Shown piece after piece: positions 17,893 through 41,118 of a stretch of DNA of 64,000 nt. How positions within the stretch are numbered: position 1 is the stretch's first letter; each line of letters opens with the position of its first letter. This DNA comes from a virus (taxonomy: Duplodnaviria; Caudoviricetes). The notes under the pieces are model-generated. The model was not told the origin of the DNA. It searched no databases and saw only the letters and a list, made by a program, of their open reading frames with translations. The stretch lies in IMG/VR virus record IMGVR_UViG_3300045747_000505; one strand, given 5' to 3'. The position numbers and the translations under genes were made by a program.

Positions 17893-19413
17893 ATGAACCG
17901 CCAAGAATCCCGCGCCATTTCCACCAAGTTCGATGTCCGCACGCTGCTGCAACCCAAGGACACCGACAAGCCGTATCCGATCATCGACGACCTGCTCGTC
18001 AGCCTGATCTTCCAGACCGACAGCTACAAGTTCACCCACCCCTTCATGTTCGCCGAGCTGAACAAGCGCGTCGGCAAGCCGCGTGTTGTTGGCATGTCCA
18101 GCTACGGCGAAGCCCGTGTCGGCCGCAGCGAGAAGGTTACCGTGTTCGGTGGCCAGATGGGCGTCAACAAGCTGTTCTCACGTCCCATCACGATGAAGGA
18201 CGTCGATGCCGCCGAAGCCTTCGCGCTGGCCCACTTCGGTCGTCCGCTGTTCGCCCGCTCTGCCTGGGAGAAGGTCGTCAACGAGTACGATGGCTACATC
18301 CCCGCCATCATCCGCGCCGTGCCGGATGGCACCGTCATCCGTGGTGGTCTGCCGATCTACTCGGTCACCGTCCTGGACATCGACCTGTTCTGGATGTCGA
18401 GCGGCATCGAGACCGCTCTGCTCCGTGCCTACTGGTACCCGACCACCATCGCCTCGCTGGACCGCGACACCAAGGTCGAGCTCAAGCGCTTCTACGAAAT
18501 CGGTGGCGCCGATCTGGCCGGTCTCGAGTTCGCGCTGCACGACTTCGGCGGTCGCGGCGTCACCTGCTCCGAACAAGCGCAGGTTGGCGGTGCCGCTCAC
18601 TTGGTCTCCTTCATGGGCTCCGACACCATCGAGGGTGTGCTGGCCATGAACTACTACTACGACTCGCCGATGTCGGCCTTCTCCGTGTTCGCCACCGAGC
18701 ACAGCGTCGAGTGCTCCTTTGGTCTGGACGACGCCGGTGAGCGCGATTACCTCAAGGCGCTGCTCATCAACGCCGTCGAAGGATCCATCGTCTCGATCGT
18801 CATCGACGGCAAGGACATGTGGCGTTGTGCCGAGACGCTGTGCTCGCCCGAGTTCCGTGATCTCATCATCGCCTCCAAGGCCAAGGTCGTCTTCCGTCCT
18901 GACTCTGGCGACATGCTGGAAGTTGTGCCGCGTCTCCTGCGCCTGCAAGACGCTGCCTTCGGTCACACCGTCATCAACGGCTACAAGAAGATCAACTACG
19001 TCGGCATCATCTACGGCGACGGCGTCGATCGCATGAACATGCTCACGATGGTCGGCAACATCATGGCCATGGGCTACGCTCCTGACTGCATGGTGTTCGG
19101 CTCCGGCGGTGCGCTGCTGATGAAGGTCAACCGCGACACCTACAAGTGGGCTCAGAAGGGTTCATGCCTGTTCTTCGAAGACGGCACCACCCTCGGCATC
19201 GCCAAGGACCCGGTCACCGACCATGGCAAGAAGTCGAAGGAAGGTCTGATGACCGTGTTGCGCCACAAGATGACCGGTGAACTGAGCGCCGGCCGCCTCG
19301 ATCTCGGTCCCATCAGCGACGAGTTCGAAGACATCCACGTGCTGATGTACCACACCGGCAAGGTCTACAACAAGACCAACGCTGCTGAAGTGCGCGAACG
19401 CGCTGCGGTGTAA
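17893..19413 (+). CDS. nadV: Nicotinamide phosphoribosyltransferase (NAMPT/NadV family)
   Basis: TDSYKFTH, LHDFGGRG, ATEHS, VFRPDSGD, IYGDG, FGSGGALL, KDPVTDHGKKSKEG. Confidence 0.9.
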   Translation: MNRQESRAISTKFDVRTLLQPKDTDKPYPIIDDLLVSLIFQTDSYKFTHPFMFAELNKRVGKPRVVGMSSYGEARVGRSEKVTVFGGQMGVNKLFSRPITMKDVDAAEAFALAHFGRPLFARSAWEKVVNEYDGYIPAIIRAVPDGTVIRGGLPIYSVTVLDIDLFWMSSGIETALLRAYWYPTTIASLDRDTKVELKRFYEIGGADLAGLEFALHDFGGRGVTCSEQAQVGGAAHLVSFMGSDTIEGVLAMNYYYDSPMSAFSVFATEHSVECSFGLDDAGERDYLKALLINAVEGSIVSIVIDGKDMWRCAETLCSPEFRDLIIASKAKVVFRPDSGDMLEVVPRLLRLQDAAFGHTVINGYKKINYVGIIYGDGVDRMNMLTMVGNIMAMGYAPDCMVFGSGGALLMKVNRDTYKWAQKGSCLFFEDGTTLGIAKDPVTDHGKKSKEGLMTVLRHKMTGELSAGRLDLGPISDEFEDIHVLMYHTGKVYNKTNAAEVRERAAV

Positions 19414-19596
19414 GACCGTGCTTGCCTCACTCTACGAGCATCGCCCCAAGATCATGTCAGCGCTGCTCATCTGCCTCGCGATCATGATCGGCGCCTGGAT
19501 CGTCATCTGGTAAGCGTTACAACTGTTACAGACGCGTAGCGTCAACCTTGGAGTATAATGGCCTCATCGACAACAAGTCTTTGAGGCCATTCTCGT

Positions 19597-19866
19597 ATGC
19601 AACTCTCACACTCCGACCTTCAGGTCTATCGTCTCCTGACCGATCCACTCGTCGGCGAAGGACCAGGCGAATACTTTCGTCGGCAGCGCGACACGCTCGC
19701 CGTGCAAGATGTCGGCAACGCCGAGTTGATTCGCCTCTGCAACGTTCGTCGTCAAGCCGACTACGTCGAGGGCCTCGTCGAGCGCCTCAAGGCGAAGGAT
19801 GCTGGTACCCTCGACGCGCTGGTTGAAGCCGTCGTTCTCCTCCTCAACACTCAATACAAGCCATGA
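19597..19866 (+). CDS. Hypothetical protein
   Basis: ORF just downstream of a GTTACA-N32-TATAAT promoter; ATGA overlap with the next gene. Confidence 0.6.
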   Translation: MQLSHSDLQVYRLLTDPLVGEGPGEYFRRQRDTLAVQDVGNAELIRLCNVRRQADYVEGLVERLKAKDAGTLDALVEAVVLLLNTQYKP

Positions 19867-20087
19867 CCACCATCGCCCTCCCCAATCCCTGGAACAGCAT
19901 CGAAGCCACGCCCGAACAGTGCCGGCTCATGCATCAGCTGCACGCTGATGAGCAGCGCTCCATCGCCGCTGGCCAGCACTATCAGGCGGTCGCCGTGGCC
20001 ACTGGCTCCACTCCACAGCAGAAGCGCGACGCTTACGACGCCTACCGCTACTCGCTGGATGCCAACCACCCCGCCAACTTCTGGTGA
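19863..20087 (+). CDS. Hypothetical protein
   Basis: ATGA-coupled ORF with genome-typical codon usage. Confidence 0.6.
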   Translation: MTTIALPNPWNSIEATPEQCRLMHQLHADEQRSIAAGQHYQAVAVATGSTPQQKRDAYDAYRYSLDANHPANFW

Positions 20088-20091
20088 GACC

Positions 20092-20430
20092 ATGGCCCTC
20101 ATCTTCATCGCCGTCCCCACCTCCGGCGTCGTCACGGACAGCGTGCTCAACGAGAGCTTCATCGCCGACGTCGCCAAGCTTCACGAGCTGTATCCACAGC
20201 ACACATTCATCGTGCCGATGATTCAGGACTACGCGCTGCTGCCGTACCTGAAGGTCGAGGCGACGTGGGAGGTCTGGGGCCACCACTGCAAGGCGCTCAT
20301 CGAAGCGTGCCGCGAGGTCTGGATCCTGATGTATCCCGGCTGGGCCAAGTCGACCGGCGTTCGTGGCGAGATTGAAATCGCCGAGGACTTCGGCACTCCG
20401 GTGGTCCGCATTCCGATCCCGCTGCGATAA
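20092..20430 (+). CDS. DUF1937 / nucleoside 2-deoxyribosyltransferase-like fold protein
   Basis: LIFIAVPTSG...C..VWIL...GWAKSTGVRGEIEIA; probable start at the ATG at 20092. Confidence 0.55.
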   Translation: MALIFIAVPTSGVVTDSVLNESFIADVAKLHELYPQHTFIVPMIQDYALLPYLKVEATWEVWGHHCKALIEACREVWILMYPGWAKSTGVRGEIEIAEDFGTPVVRIPIPLR

Positions 20431-20639
20431 ATAGGAGACACATAGCAGGAGACGAAGATGGTCATACGGTCCCGTCGGCAGGAAGCGCCAGTCGTTGAAG
20501 AAACAACTGAAAGGCCTACGTACGGAATCATTGTCATCGACGTCTTTCAAACGGACCTGACCGAGGATGAGCTGAGCGACATCAAGCGCATCTTCGAGCA
20601 GATTCGGCGTGATCTCGATTCCATCGTACAGGGACAACC

Positions 20640-21221
20640 ATGAAGCTTCTTGAAATCCGAGCCGTCGGCAACTCGCCGATCGACCTCTCCGACCCAGACA
20701 ACAGGCCTGGCGCCTACGAGCGTGAGGGTGCTGCACGCGACTCCTACGCGCAGAAGATCGCCAAGGGCTCAGCCGAAGCCGACAAGATGGCTGAAAAGCT
20801 CGGTGGCACGCTGAAGAAGCATCCGCCAAGCCAGTTCATTTCAGGCGACACGCCGTTCTGGACAATCTCTGGTCTCGACTTCGAAACGAAGGGTGGCAAG
20901 AAGGTTCGCTGCTCAATCGACCGTGAGCCTCATCACCGTCGTCAGGCGCTGTTCTTCCGCAACACCTTTCTGAAGCATCCGAAAGGCGTTCACAGCCACG
21001 ACAACGAGGCGAAGCGCACCATCGAAGCCCTTGAGCGTGAGATCAGCTCTGCTCATGAAGAAGCCTTCGGCAAGCGGGCGCTTGGCACCGACTTCCTCTA
21101 TGATTCGAACGACAAGGACTACACGCTCATCGGCCTCAGCGTTGGCATTCCGCTGATGGACGGCGTCAAGGGAGTTCAGTTCGTCAAGAAGGTCATCGCT
21201 CTCATCACGAAGCAGTTCTAA
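20640..21221 (+). CDS. Hypothetical late protein (MKLLEI N-terminus)
   Basis: 193-aa ORF downstream of ATAAATA at 20427. Confidence 0.65.
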   Translation: MKLLEIRAVGNSPIDLSDPDNRPGAYEREGAARDSYAQKIAKGSAEADKMAEKLGGTLKKHPPSQFISGDTPFWTISGLDFETKGGKKVRCSIDREPHHRRQALFFRNTFLKHPKGVHSHDNEAKRTIEALEREISSAHEEAFGKRALGTDFLYDSNDKDYTLIGLSVGIPLMDGVKGVQFVKKVIALITKQF

Positions 21222-21895
21222 TGCCAACCGCCCAGCTTCGCTCGCTGGCTGCCAAGTCAGACAAGACTCTTGGTGACCTCGAGCGCTACTGGGCAGACGC
21301 CAAGGTTGAAGCTCATCACAAGTTCAAGAAGAAGGACAAGCACTTCTGGGCCTACGTCGTCGGTATCGTCAAGCGCCGCGCTGGGCTGAGCGAAGAGGAC
21401 ATCAGCTTCAAGACCTATCTGCTCCTCATCGAGGACGACAAGGCGCACGGCAAGGCTCTCGAGCGAACAGGCTTCTGGGGCAAGGCTGGTGCGGGTTGTA
21501 TCATTTTAGCTCGGGACACGGGAAGAATCTGCCTGCCGAAGCGAAGCAAGGACGTGGAGCAACCACACACTTGGGGAACTTGGGGTGGCGCTATCGACGG
21601 AAGAGAGGCGCCTAAGGCCGCTGCAGAGCGCGAGGTCCGTGAGGAAGCTGGATATACAGGCAAGCTCGAAATCGTTCCCCTGTACGTTTATAAGCATCCC
21701 AGTGGCTTCACCTACCACAACTTCCTGGCCATCGTGGACAAGGAGTTCGAGCCAGAGCTGAACTGGGAAACGTCGACCTACCGTTGGTGCTCGCCAACGA
21801 AGCTGCCGTCGCCGCTGCACTTCGGTCTGAAGGGTCTGCTTGCCGACGCCGCAAGCTGGCAGAAGATCAAAGACGCTCAACCTAAAAAGACGTAG
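21221..21895 (+). CDS. Nudix hydrolase with extra N-terminal helical domain
   Basis: Nudix box GGAIDGREAPKAAAEREVREEAG. Confidence 0.85.
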   Translation: MPTAQLRSLAAKSDKTLGDLERYWADAKVEAHHKFKKKDKHFWAYVVGIVKRRAGLSEEDISFKTYLLLIEDDKAHGKALERTGFWGKAGAGCIILARDTGRICLPKRSKDVEQPHTWGTWGGAIDGREAPKAAAEREVREEAGYTGKLEIVPLYVYKHPSGFTYHNFLAIVDKEFEPELNWETSTYRWCSPTKLPSPLHFGLKGLLADAASWQKIKDAQPKKT

Positions 21896-21927
21896 CCTGA
21901 AGACTGAGACATAGAGTAAAATACAGA

Positions 21928-22256
21928 CATGGGTGCTACAGCCATTCTGTAGTGATTGTTGTAATTCGGAGCAAGTTGAAGGATTCTGGACGCGGGTTCG
22001 ATTCCCGCCAGGTCCACCACAAAACACATACCGCCGGCTGTAGAATTCGGCAACACCTTAGGGACGATCCACGTGGTGTGTGTTTTGTAATGGGCCTGAC
22101 CTGGTCTCGACAGGGTTACGGAGATGCGCACACGCAACACGAGAGTCGACCGACGTAATCGGCGAAAACACGCTAAGTGCAAACGAAGCAAACTTCCGTC
22201 TGGCTGCTTAATACCCAGCTCACGGTGAGGCTAACCACCTTATAAAGCAACGGTGA
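21928..22256 (+). ncRNA. ssrA: Circularly permuted two-piece tmRNA, tag (A)ANEANFRLAA
   Basis: T-arm plus CAGGTCC-ACCA end at 22019 and precede the 5' end GGGCCTG at 22092. The 7-bp acceptor has G3:U70. Tag ORF is 22179-22211. Outer ends are approximate. Confidence 0.9.
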
Positions 22257-22282
22257 GGACAGGACACTTCGGTGTCCTGTCC
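22257..22282 (+). terminator. Hairpin closing the tmRNA gene
   Basis: ggacaggacac-ttcg-gtgtcctgtcc. Confidence 0.7.
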
Positions 22283-22306: not shown

Positions 22307-22795
22307 ATGCGCAAGCTGCTCGCCGCTCTCATGCTCACCCTCTCGCTGGGCGCTGCTGCCCAGTCGGAGCCGCATGTTCAGATCGGCGCAGCAGACTTCA
22401 CGGTCTTCAAGGTCTATCCGAACTTTGCGCTGCTCTTCGACCGCGAGTCGATGCATGGTGATGCCAACACCGGCGACGCGGTGATGACGATCAAGATTCA
22501 CCTGAAGTCCCCAGACCCAAGGCTCGTGCCGAAGTTTCCGGTCAAGTTCCTCGTCAACACTCTCTTCATCGAGTGCGAGAAGGATCAAGTCACGGTGCTG
22601 GTCAGCCAGATGTATGACGATGAGAATGACCTCGTCGGCATTCGTCGATACTACCCGCCCATTTCGAACCCACACTCAGAAGGTGCGCCGGCCACTGAGG
22701 TCCTCGACTTCGCCTGCGCCTCGAATCCGAAGTACCCGAACAAGCGTAACACGCCTATAATTGTTACACCTGACGATGACCGGAATGGTGTATAA
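22307..22795 (+). CDS. Secreted hypothetical protein
   Basis: SD GGAG, signal peptide MRKLLAALMLTLSLGAAAQ, two Cys. Confidence 0.65.
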   Translation: MRKLLAALMLTLSLGAAAQSEPHVQIGAADFTVFKVYPNFALLFDRESMHGDANTGDAVMTIKIHLKSPDPRLVPKFPVKFLVNTLFIECEKDQVTVLVSQMYDDENDLVGIRRYYPPISNPHSEGAPATEVLDFACASNPKYPNKRNTPIIVTPDDDRNGV

Positions 22796-22816
22796 TAGCC
22801 TCATGGAATCACAAAA

Positions 22817-22891
22817 GCGTCGTTAGCTCAATGGTAGAGTACGGGCCTCTAAAACCCAGGGTTATCGGTTCGATCCCGATACGACGCACCA
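22817..22891 (+). tRNA. tRNA-Sup(CTA), amber suppressor with a Lys-like body
   Basis: GCGTCGT/ACGACGC acceptor, loop CT-CTA-AA, TTCGATC T-loop, A73, CCA. Confidence 0.85.
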
Positions 22892-22912
22892 CCTCTTTTC
22901 AAGGAACCCAAA

Positions 22913-23206: not shown

Positions 23207-23770
23207 AGGGTCTCAGTCCACTCGGCCTCGTCAAGGATCATCACATTGATCGAGGTCCGTGGGCGATTCGAATTGGGCAGATGCTGAAGGACGTTGGGCG
23301 ACAAGTGTTGCCCATCTCGAATCAAACGGTGCTGCCGGTGCTGACTGACATCGTCGAGGACGAGTTCGTTGCCACCGTGCCAACGATCGACAAGCACGAA
23401 GTTGGATTTCAAATTGGGGACATGGTGCTACCAAATGATTGAAGTCATCAAAGCAAGAGACAAGGCCGTGTGGAAGGTCAAGCTCGACAAGAAGCTGGTC
23501 GGTGAGATTCGCTTTCTCAATCCAGGCTTTCAGTACTTTCCGCGTGGCTCGAAGGAGGGTGGCGGTGTGCTGCCCTCGCTGAACGCCGTCATCAAGTCGC
23601 TCGAGGACTATTCCTGAACCTAAACAAATCGATGTACAAGTCCTAAGGACAGTGTACAATAGGAACTGTTGAGAAGCTCACAGTGGTGAGCAGTATCTTA
23701 GATAGTTGGCATAGACCGGGACCCCGTTGTCGCCCAGCCACAAACGACGACATCAACTAGTGAGATGATC

Positions 23771-24151
23771 ATGTAGATCCGCACTTCCAAAACCTACCTC
23801 TACGCAATCACACGCCGCGATCTCCCACTCGCGCAACAGGCTGTTCAAGCTGGCCACGCCGCCATTGAGCACGCTTACCAACATGGTCGTCCGCACGATC
23901 ATCATCCGTCGTACATCAAGCTGACGACGCGAGACAAGGCCGCTCTTCTCGAGCTTCAGGCCACGCTTGCCACGCACGGCATTCAAACCGCAGAATTTCA
24001 CGAGCCATACAAAGCTTGGGGCCTCACCGCAATCGCCTGTCTTCTCGGCGAGGAACAACGCTGTCTGTTACGACAGTTACAGCTTTGGACCACGCAGAAT
24101 GCTCAGGTTCGTGATACAATGGACACATCAACCACTCGGAGTTTCTCATGA
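23771..24151 (+). CDS. Pth2-type peptidyl-tRNA hydrolase-like protein with an in-frame TAG at codon 2 (not in the ORF track)
   Basis: Manual translation M*IRTSKTYLYAITRRDLPLAQQAVQAGHAAIEH...FHEPYKAWGLTAIAC; ends in an ATGA overlap with 24148. Confidence 0.75.
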
Positions 24152-24627
24152 CTCATCCCCTCGTTACCAAGTGCCTCGCCGCTCAGGCCGAGGTCGACAG
24201 CATCGTAGCCCTGCTCAAGGGAAATAGCAAGCACCAGATCGACATCATGAAGGAGCTCATCGAGCGCGCCGACATGCCCGAGATCAAGCTGGACAAGCGC
24301 TTCGCTGGTCTCTTCAGCTACGACTACATCGAGATCGAGGTCTCCAGCGCTGGCCGCGCCTCCTTCAGTGTCTGGGAGGATGCCTACGCCGATATCCCGG
24401 AGGAGAACGTCGGTGAGTTCGACCTCAGCGAGCACATCCTCGACGGTCGTGACGACGACTTCCGGCTCGAGTACGAAGCCTACGTGGCTCGGATCGCCGA
24501 GGCCTTTCGTGAGCGCGCGTGGATTCAGCGCGACGCCGAGATCGCTCGTGCTCGCGCCACCCTCGACCAGCTCGAGCGGCAGCGCGAAGCCATCATCGCC
24601 CACGGCCCCATCAGGATCAAGTCATGA
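24148..24627 (+). CDS. Hypothetical protein
   Basis: SD GGAG; promoter inside the 3' end of the Pth-like gene. Confidence 0.7.
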   Translation: MTHPLVTKCLAAQAEVDSIVALLKGNSKHQIDIMKELIERADMPEIKLDKRFAGLFSYDYIEIEVSSAGRASFSVWEDAYADIPEENVGEFDLSEHILDGRDDDFRLEYEAYVARIAEAFRERAWIQRDAEIARARATLDQLERQREAIIAHGPIRIKS

Positions 24628-30202: not shown

Positions 30203-30808
30203 ATGTCTAAATTTTACGCCTACATTTATAGAGACAACGAGGTTCCGTTTTATGTTGGTAAGGGAACAGGCAATCGTGCCTATCTTCATCTTACCGACCG
30301 AAGAGGATCACACTTTACAAATAGGGTTCAGCGTCTCGTAAGAGAAGGTCGAGCCCCGACAATAGAAATCATCGAAGCGCTGGACGAGGACCACGCCAAG
30401 TTTTTAGAAGTTTGTCTCATCGAGGTCATTGGTCGTGCCGACCTTGGCAAAGGAACATTGTTGAACCTAACCGATGGTGGCGATGGTAGAACAACTTGGT
30501 CTGAAGAACAGAAACGGCATCACTCTGAAAAAATGACGGGACAGAAGAGAACGGAAGAAACCAAAAGACTGATGTCTGAAGTACAATCGCAGATACCAAG
30601 ACAGAAGGCAAAACCAGGCGAAAAGAAACGAGGACCAGCGAAAGGAACGAAGTACGCAAATCGTGTCAACGGAACCTTTAGCGACGAACATCGACTAAAG
30701 TTGGCGCAATCTCAAACCGGAAAAACGCATTCGCCTGAGACCCGTGCCAAGATCGCAGAGACACGGCGGAAGACAGAAGAACGAAAGAAGATGTTACAGA
30801 CAACCTAG
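30203..30808 (+). mobile_element. GIY-YIG homing endonuclease with NUMOD3 repeats
   Basis: FYAYIYRD...FYVGKGTGNR; LLNLTDGGDG; HSPETRAKI; AT-rich. Confidence 0.85.
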
Positions 30809-40302: not shown

Positions 40303-41118
40303 ATGGACTGGTTCATCTCATTCAAAAACTGGCTTCGTCGCTTGTTTCTCAACAAGCCGCTGGGCACTGGGCGCATCTACGCTTGGAAGCCTGACGTCCC
40401 AGACCATCGCGACCGGCTCTTCAGCCTGCCAATTCCGGCCAAGCTCCCAGACCACGTTGACCCACTCGGCGCCAATGACGTCGTAGAGGACCAAGGTCAA
40501 CTTGGGTCCTGCACTGGGCACGCCACCACGACCGCCGTTGAAATCATCACTGGCGCTCGTACGCAGTACTCTCGTCTGATGACGTACTACAACGGTCGTC
40601 TCATCGAGAACAATGTTGCCAACGACGATGGCGCGGTCATTCGCGACGTCATCAAGGGTGTTCAGAAGTATGGCATCTCTCGCGAGAGCCTTTGGCCGTA
40701 CGTCGAAGCTAAGTTCGCAAAGAAGCCAACAGCCAAGTCCTACACCGACGCGCTTGGTCTGCGCACCAAGATTGCCTCGTACGAGCGCATCACCACGCTT
40801 GAGCAGGTCAAGACGGCGCTTGCCGCTGGTCTGCCAGTGGTCTTTGGCTTCTCCGTTCCAGAGTACTTCGAGAGCGCTGAGGTTGCTCGCACTGGTTGGG
40901 TTCGCTTTCCAACGAGCAAGGACAAGATGGTTGGTGGACACGCGGTCTGCGCCATTGGCTACGATGACCGTAAGTCAGCGCCAATTCCATACGTCTGGGT
41001 TCGCAACTCATGGAGCTCCGCTTGGGGTCTGAAGGGCAACTTCCGTATGGACCAGCAGTGGTTCACCGACCCGACTCGCCTCGTCGATGACATGTGGGTC
41101 ATCCATCCAAAGGTCTGA
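40303..41118 (+). CDS. Papain-like cysteine peptidase (family C1)
   Basis: DQGQLGSCTGHA, GGHAVCAIGYDD, VRNSW...WG..G.F. Confidence 0.9.
   Translation: MDWFISFKNWLRRLFLNKPLGTGRIYAWKPDVPDHRDRLFSLPIPAKLPDHVDPLGANDVVEDQGQLGSCTGHATTTAVEIITGARTQYSRLMTYYNGRLIENNVANDDGAVIRDVIKGVQKYGISRESLWPYVEAKFAKKPTAKSYTDALGLRTKIASYERITTLEQVKTALAAGLPVVFGFSVPEYFESAEVARTGWVRFPTSKDKMVGGHAVCAIGYDDRKSAPIPYVWVRNSWSSAWGLKGNFRMDQQWFTDPTRLVDDMWVIHPKV

Follow-up and report, generated by a model that had tools for sequence, protein, structure and literature searches.

A conserved early stop codon in a Pth2-fold phage gene, probably decoded by the phage's own suppressor tRNA

In a 64,000-nucleotide (nt) stretch of IMG/VR virus record IMGVR_UViG_3300045747_000505 (Duplodnaviria; Caudoviricetes), referred to here as the window, a small gene predicted to encode a protein of the peptidyl-tRNA hydrolase 2 (Pth2) fold is interrupted by TAG at the very beginning of its frame. 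From comparison of related sequences we consider it likely that this gene is functional and that an amber suppressor tRNA of the phage itself, encoded at 22817-22891, gates its translation. The window is part of a large freshwater phage genome and carries 26 tRNA genes and a two-piece transfer-messenger RNA (tmRNA). The tRNA, the head of the gene (hereafter the gate) with its Shine-Dalgarno (SD)-like element, and the open reading frame (ORF) behind it are as follows.

22817-22891, plus strand: amber suppressor tRNA with anticodon CUA, loop CUCUAAA, discriminator A and encoded CCA (ARAGORN; Rfam tRNA 60.1 bits, E 7.6e-12).
23760-23776, plus strand: gate, made of the SD-like GTGAG, ATG (23765) ATC ATG (23771) and TAG at 23774-23776, followed by A (direct reading; layout shared with 52 homologues).
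23777-24151, plus strand: Pth2-fold ORF of 124 codons and TGA, with no internal start for 114 codons (ORF reading, profile and fold).

Direct reading of the plus strand gives ATG 23765-23767, ATC, ATG 23771-23773, TAG 23774-23776 and then ATC CGC, with 124 sense codons at 23777-24148 and TGA at 24149-24151, just as an earlier sequence-only reading of this DNA had described the gene. The same reading had stated that no canonical start follows the TAG until the last few codons, and the first in-frame ATG, GTG or TTG does lie 114 codons downstream; it had also noticed an ATGA overlap at the end of the frame, which is formed by the terminal TGA and the ATG of an ORF at 24148-24627. The only SD-like element at the gate, GTGAG at 23760-23764, sits 6 nt upstream of the second ATG (23771), so the mini-frame of the window is probably an ATG-TAG start-stop. 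Beyond the TAG the ORF continues in the same frame, with no +1 frameshift of the prfB type. The region 23653-24068 is identical in a contig from an independent wetland run (X3), and the TAG is therefore not a sequencing error. In a strain of about 95% identity from another wetland run (X4), a 3-nt in-frame deletion is found at 23782, just after TAG-ATC, versus 1-nt indels in the leader upstream of the TAG, a pattern that fits translation beyond the stop.

Homologues were gathered by a search of 5.8 billion proteins, a scan of IMG/VR and a scan of metagenomes, which together gave 59 distinct proteins. In 52 of these a stop lies 1-6 codons after an SD and a start codon (50 TAG, 2 TGA). The sequence-only reading had allowed that homologues might lack the TAG; comparison of the 5' ends places it at one position in 50 of the 59, which on these sequences is far beyond chance. 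Counting the start, the number of sense codons before the stop in the 52 genes is one (11 genes), two (7), three (25), four (8) or six (1), and most gated homologues have no canonical start for tens of codons past the stop. The base 3' of the gate stop is a purine in all 52 (A in 45, G in 7), against 28 purines and 34 pyrimidines after ordinary TAG terminators in three complete genomes of phages with tRNA(CUA) (Fisher p 5e-12). A purine at this place favours suppression of a stop by a tRNA. A pyrimidine bias after real TAG terminators, 9 of 12 in the complete genome G006, was discarded when it was lost on adding G007 and G008. The gate appears to be specific to the one gene: scanning the complete genomes G005 (suppressor anticodon UCA) and G006 (CUA) for the gate pattern with the matching stop returned only the Pth2-like gene, a scan of the window for a second early-gated gene found none, and other Pth2 paralogues of the same phages start normally. 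Stop-hopping and frameshifting were ruled out, as the two codons beside the stop are not alike and the frame stays the same, and no stimulatory RNA structure was found downstream of the stop (mean z -0.73 over 49 loci).

The identity of the stop agrees with the anticodon in the suppressor tRNA carried by the phage. Within the 3-4 kb fetched around each gene, ARAGORN found a matching suppressor at 38 of the 52 gated loci, 37 of them upstream and all on the same strand, at a median distance of 980 nt from the gate, and a mismatched suppressor at none of the 52. On the same contig a matching suppressor is present in 44 of 52, adding L016, L030, L101 and the isolates, and it is present in all 10 complete genomes examined (for XacN1 according to PMC5852040); ten gated loci have two suppressor tRNAs. 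In L016 the tRNA(CUA) lies 180 nt upstream and was missed by ARAGORN. In the window it lies 880 nt upstream on the same strand as the gated gene, so that the CUA tRNA to which the sequence-only reading had alluded does exist, 0.9 kb away; it folds into a cloverleaf with a 7-nt anticodon loop, U33, a purine at 37 and an anticodon complementary to the stop, and two of its anticodon-stem pairs are C-A mismatches. That expression would need amber read-through, as first proposed from the sequence, is supported by this neighbouring tRNA together with the absence of a start after the TAG.

Locus L023 has a TGA gate and two tRNA(UCA) genes 1.1-1.3 kb upstream, and L030 has a TGA gate and a tRNA(UCA) 3.8 kb away on its contig; treating these two as independent of each other was given up, the tree being too poorly resolved. 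In Agrobacterium phage Atu_ph07 a Pth2 paralogue (Pfam 73.7 bits) opens with SD-ATG, five codons and then TGA-A, and UCA is the sole suppressor tRNA of this phage (PMC6102473), confirmed by us at 430713-430787. Its gated gene belongs to a different branch of the Pth2 superfamily and is an independent case of TGA with UCA. Altogether three cases pair TGA with UCA and about 50 pair TAG with CUA, and no mismatch occurs. In Atu_ph07 and in Ralstonia phage RsoM2USA the suppressor tRNA is far from the gated gene.

Several of the gated genes belong to cultured phages. The frame reads M-T-H-TAG-N in Serratia phage BF, M-A-Q-TAG-N in Pectobacterium phage CBB, M-T-TAG-I in Acinetobacter phage ME3, where a tRNA annotated 'OTHER, anticodon CTA' lies 450 nt upstream, and M-L-TAG-I in RsoM2USA; these four proteins are 33-39% identical to that of the window and each phage carries a single tRNA(CUA). 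A longer protein, with the Pth2-like domain as its C-terminal part, is found in XacN1 and Xoo-sp13 (Xanthomonas phages) and in Stenotrophomonas phage RAS14, and its gene opens with SD-ATG-AAG(-AAG)-TAG-A; in XacN1 ORF364, SD-ATG-AAG-TAG stands ahead of the annotated start. XacN1 has two CUA suppressor tRNAs for which its authors could not identify a target gene (PMC5852040). The SD-ATG-stop head was overlooked in all six GenBank records (BF, ME3, CBB, Atu_ph07, RAS14, XacN1) because the mini-frame was never annotated: the gene is missing from the BF record KY630187 (about 286.09 kb) and is annotated from an internal start past the stop in ME3 (KU935715, ME3_195), CBB (KU574722, CBB_406), XacN1 (AP018399, ORF364), Atu_ph07 (MF403008, AUZ95035, internal Met) and RAS14 (OP752703, WAX21615).

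The protein of the window is, by predicted fold and profile comparison, a divergent member of the Pth2 superfamily. The sequence-only reading had called it Pth2-like, and this holds though the direct match to Pfam PTH2 (PF01981) is sub-threshold (15.9 bits, E 0.015, cut-off 23); among gated relatives XacN1 ORF364 (25.3 bits) and the Atu_ph07 paralogue pass the cut-off. An AlphaFold2 model of the window protein has a mean confidence (pLDDT) of 90.3, and the top 15 PDB matches of this model in Foldseek are Pth2 proteins (1wn2, 1q7s, 3erj, 2zv3, 1xty, 1rlk) and Atu0240, with TM-scores of 0.5-0.75 and E-values down to 5e-5. Later matches have E >0.1, and, Atu0240 apart, every significant structural match is to a Pth2 protein of archaea or eukaryotes. 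A family profile that includes distant phage homologues (A2) matches Methanocaldococcus jannaschii Pth2 (2zv3) along its entire length with E 7.2e-6, chain residues 2-114 aligning with positions 7-103 of the profile, and other Pth2 chains (24bt, 1rzw, 1wn2) at E 0.001-0.02, so a PTH2 relationship, the lack of which the sequence-only reading had feared, is found; a profile of close homologues only (A1) gave no match to PDB sequences. In Sulfolobus solfataricus Pth2 the catalytic residues are reportedly the Lys of a Gly-Lys loop and the Asp of a D-x-G motif. The window family lacks the two-residue Gly-Lys insert and has a near-invariant Gln20 at the position of the Lys, while an invariant Glu76 aligns with the Pth2 Asp and the R-x-D and Q-x-x-H-A motifs are kept.

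In the mechanism that we propose, ribosomes would start at the ATG served by the SD, probably that at 23771, and meet UAG-A at once. With no charged tRNA(CUA) at hand, release factor 1 (RF1) would terminate after one to three codons and no enzyme would be made; with tRNA(CUA), the UAG would be read as an amino acid and the 124-residue enzyme would be produced, its output tracking the balance of suppressor tRNA and RF1. The stop would fall in an unstructured N-terminal tail where any residue may be tolerated, which fits the diversity of the suppressor tRNAs. We infer that read-through really occurs, and that the enzyme hydrolyses an ester at the 3' end of a tRNA, be it peptidyl- or aminoacyl-tRNA. 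Although one base change would be enough to abolish it, the stop persists across deep divergence, which suggests either that the enzyme is harmful when no working suppressor is present or that its level must follow suppressor activity.

The suppressors themselves are varied. That of the window has tRNA-Lys as its nearest ordinary tRNA (72% identity), suppressors in general are 70-79% identical to their nearest ordinary tRNAs, and blastn against Escherichia coli genomes gave no match to them. Across 60 distinct suppressors the acceptor stems are very different, with first pairs U1-A72, C1-G72 or G1-C72 and discriminators A73 or G73, so the inserted residue probably differs between phages; the Lys insertion put forward in the sequence-only reading is not supported. 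A 'Q' at the stop position in database homologues was rejected as evidence for glutamine: the gene callers had used TAG=Q, and the homologues themselves carry TAG. The two opal suppressors of L023 (1721-1797 and 1857-1933) are 77-79% identical to the tRNA-Arg(UCU) of locus L001 (1411-1486), which lies in the same neighbourhood, and at several loci a tRNA-Arg with anticodon UCU or CCU is retained close to the cassette; this suggests that suppressors of the L023 type may have arisen from tRNA-Arg by a single anticodon change.

Several observations weigh against a suppressor-gated gene or limit what can be made of it. Four homologues (L025, L128, L134 and L135) form a clade that has lost the gate, and L025 and L128 nevertheless keep CUA tRNAs, which must then have another role too. 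Related sequences are not independent of one another and the gene tree is poorly resolved. At 8 of the 52 gated loci no suppressor was found: in four the contig is short, and in the other four the 1.7-4 kb upstream contain none. Lacking the Gly-Lys loop, the family may use a chemistry different from that of canonical Pth2. Nor are the matching stops purged from the genomes: 170 of 330 ORFs (52%) of G005, a UCA phage, end in TGA, and 43 of 352 (12%) of G007, a CUA phage, end in TAG. A strong general suppressor would be costly where matching stops are this common, so suppression would have to be weak, timed, context-dependent or specially efficient at the gate. TAG ends 0 of 43 confident ORFs in the window and 3.4% and 2% of ORFs in G006 and G008; genome-wide avoidance of the matching stop was accordingly rejected as a mark of an active suppressor, being inconsistent across G005-G008, and no excess of nearby back-up stops was found.

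Among other explanations, the one that survives best, at low probability, is that near-cognate tRNAs of the host read through the stop and so give a low constitutive level of enzyme, the suppressor tRNA serving something else. Early stop codons and UAG-A contexts are leaky, and the suppressors that persist in the gate-less clade, like those far from the gene in Atu_ph07 and RsoM2USA, would be accounted for. It would leave unexplained, however, why the type of stop follows the suppressor anticodon without a mismatch, three TGA/UCA cases included, and why the two are so tightly linked on one strand; a weak SD or start codon would also be a simpler route to low expression.

The sequence-only reading had itself offered a different switch, which we now regard as improbable, in which a mini-frame like the bar minigenes of phage lambda causes peptidyl-tRNA drop-off and a shortage of Pth promotes read-through, so that the gene senses the lesion that its product repairs. 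SD-led mini-frames of 2-4 codons are the length class that causes drop-off, 40 of the 52 gated genes have 2-4 sense codons between an SD-led start and the stop, and the predicted product has the Pth2 fold. In the 11 start-stop genes, and probably in the window too, no peptidyl-tRNA would form, however, and no mechanism leads from drop-off to read-through. Covariation of stop and anticodon is not predicted either, and the phages also carry ungated canonical Pth2 paralogues.

Slightly less probable still is a start just past the stop, at the ATC in the window or by re-initiation, for which no read-through would be needed. ATT is a known rare start codon, and ATT or ATC follows the stop in 27 of the 52 genes, but AAC, GTT, AAT, ACA, ACC, AGC, GTC or GTG stands there in the other 25. 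Initiation at the ATC, which the sequence-only reading had kept in mind as a way for its proposal to fail, is thus not borne out by a conserved start codon after the stop. The SD is spaced 5-9 nt to the upstream ATG in gated homologues and not to the post-stop codon, and such a start gives no reason for the stop to track the anticodon of a tRNA.

A changed genetic code, with TAG read as an amino acid in many genes (as in code 15) and the gated gene only one example, is very unlikely. Gene callers did use TAG=Q for several homologues, and the 0 of 43 confident window ORFs ending in TAG would fit. Against this, long ORFs are intact under code 11, the window has no mid-gene TAG with coding signal on both sides, no other early-gated gene is present in the window, G005 or G006, and TAG ends real genes such as the NUDIX gene at 21221-21895. 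TAG-ending ORFs in the window also include two homing-endonuclease-like genes (GIY-YIG/NUMOD) in the tRNA array, at 30203-30808 and 35146-35796. In G006, the genome of L001, TAG lies between coding-signal stretches of the same frame at 222611, 278258, 294175 and 339104 (plus strand), that is, at 4 of 28 such junctions versus 3-5% of terminators, which may reflect read-through fusions or chance. Finally, a pseudogene or an assembly error, for which a single in-frame stop is the usual mark and as which GenBank annotators treated the gene, is effectively refuted by the comparative data: 52 distinct sequences, with identities as low as 33%, keep the stop at one place and have an intact ORF and a conserved fold, and the same sequence recurs in an independent sample.

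What a suppressor-gated hydrolase would be for is a matter on which our preferences are weaker. Tentatively, it could provide feed-forward clean-up of the peptidyl-tRNA and stalled-ribosome by-products of suppression, together with the adjacent tmRNA. A somewhat less favoured possibility is negative feedback, in which the hydrolase acts on the ester of the suppressor tRNA itself and holds suppression at a set level. It is rather doubtful that the gate serves as a timer or as a check that the host charges the tRNA, and we would give a similarly small chance to some other purpose altogether.

A second gene of the window bears on termination. The plus strand at 37723-38391 encodes an RF1-like protein (NCBIfam prfA, E 1e-54) in which domain 1 is missing and a PPT (P-x-T) motif and GGQ are present. 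Its frame is interrupted by TGA at 37828-37830 (GGC TGA A), where E. coli RF1 has a conserved Trp, and this codon-36 GGC-TGA-A is kept in the RF1-like homologues of the complete genomes G005, G007 and G008, whether their suppressor is CUA or UCA; it is another conserved in-frame stop, in a gene for translation termination. A self-contained circuit is conceivable, if improbable, in which the Pth2-fold enzyme, acting on the aminoacyl or peptidyl ester of the suppressor, measures and sets the level of amber (or opal) read-through and the UGA-gated RF1-like gene forms a second arm reporting on release factor 2 (RF2) and UGA decoding. Synthesis of the enzyme would need the same tRNA on which it would act, so that the loop would be one of negative feedback. 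ARAGORN also called a tRNA with a four-base anticodon (agta), and with no amino acid assigned, at 37334-37406 on the plus strand, two genes ahead of the RF1-like one.

Phage suppressor tRNAs are known to recode stops throughout genomes, TAG to Gln ('code 15') or TGA to Trp ('code 4') (Borges et al., bioRxiv 10.1101/2021.08.26.457843). As here, a suppressor tRNA of the phage translates genes with in-frame stops in a standard-code host, with the idea that expression is timed or licensed; in those phages, however, many late and lysis genes carry many stops and coding is poor under code 11. Pth2 is not mentioned by Borges et al. (0 occurrences of 'hydrolase'). In the phages described here the code is standard, and the only client found is one small gene that has a single stop, at codon 2-7. 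The prfB gene for RF2, whose product recognises stop codons, is autoregulated through an early in-frame UGA and a +1 frameshift. It shares with the gate an early in-frame stop in a translation-factor gene that ties synthesis to the decoding of that stop, whereas here the frame is unchanged, a dedicated tRNA would decode the stop, and the product, a protein of hydrolase fold, is not known to read stops. Anderson, Voigt and Arkin reportedly built in 2007 a synthetic AND gate from the supD tRNA and a T7 RNA polymerase gene with amber codons, in which, as proposed here, output requires both messenger RNA and suppressor tRNA; theirs is engineered, whereas the phage gate is natural, conserved and genetically linked. 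The lambda bar minigenes stand on their own and become toxic when Pth runs short. They resemble the gate in being very short SD-led mini-frames that end in a stop and in their link to peptidyl-tRNA hydrolase, but in these phages the mini-frame forms the beginning of the very gene for the hydrolase and co-varies with a suppressor tRNA. In jumbo phages PTH2 genes were already known (Iyer et al. 2021, PMC7824862), in a text from which the in-frame stop and suppressor tRNAs are absent (0 occurrences of 'suppressor' and 'stop codon'), and full-text literature searches turned up no account of a lone Pth2-type gene under the control of a matching stop.

In many large phages with a standard genetic code there are "orphan" suppressor tRNAs, and the gate offers a concrete and conserved client for them, XacN1 included. 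It also reveals that annotation has gone wrong systematically, the gene being absent or truncated in the records of BF, ME3, CBB, Atu_ph07 and RAS14, and it is a natural counterpart of the amber-suppressor logic gates of synthetic biology. The suppressor tRNA, the tmRNA, the predicted Pth2-fold enzyme and the RF1-like gene may thereby be linked as one toolkit for termination and rescue. As at least seven cultured phages carry the gate, the system is directly testable.

The remaining features around the gated gene are as follows.

21884-22282, plus strand: two-piece (permuted) tmRNA with tag ANEANFRLAA (Rfam beta_tmRNA 140.6 bits, tmRNA_permuted 125.3 bits; ARAGORN).
22789-22796, plus strand: putative tRNA promoter, a TG-TATAAT extended -10-like element 20 nt before tRNA(CUA) (direct reading, consensus match only).
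23633-23660, plus strand: putative sigma-70-like promoter TGTACA-16-TACAAT about 110 nt upstream of the gated gene (promoter scan, consensus match only).
24148-24627, plus strand: downstream ORF of 159 amino acids with an ATGA overlap with the gated gene (direct reading).

The order tmRNA, suppressor tRNA, gated gene is recurrent, the tmRNA of the window standing just before tRNA(CUA); 19 of the 52 related loci have a tmRNA upstream of the gated gene, and none has one downstream. The tmRNA is of the betaproteobacterial permuted type, and related loci carry similar tags of the ANDxxFRVAA type, which hints at a betaproteobacterial host. A similar GTGTATAAT stands immediately before the tRNA(CUA) of L016, again by consensus match only. 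In the X4 strain, positions 22816-22910, which hold tRNA(CUA), are replaced by 729 other letters. The ORF at 24148-24627 has its own GGAG 7 nt upstream of its start and is possibly coupled translationally to the gated gene; it has no Pfam or PHROG match, and weak homologues lie directly downstream of the gated gene in 4 related loci. Other neighbour proteins, looked at for hints to function, are mostly of no known function and poorly conserved across loci.

By megablast the window has no close relative among 50,697 phage records, and its DNA is also present in metagenomes from ponds, wetlands and fresh water. At 17893-21895 on the plus strand, just ahead of the tmRNA, lies an NAD-salvage pair of nicotinamide phosphoribosyltransferase and NUDIX hydrolase genes, and the tRNA array contains a gene for a papain-family cysteine protease at 40303-41118.

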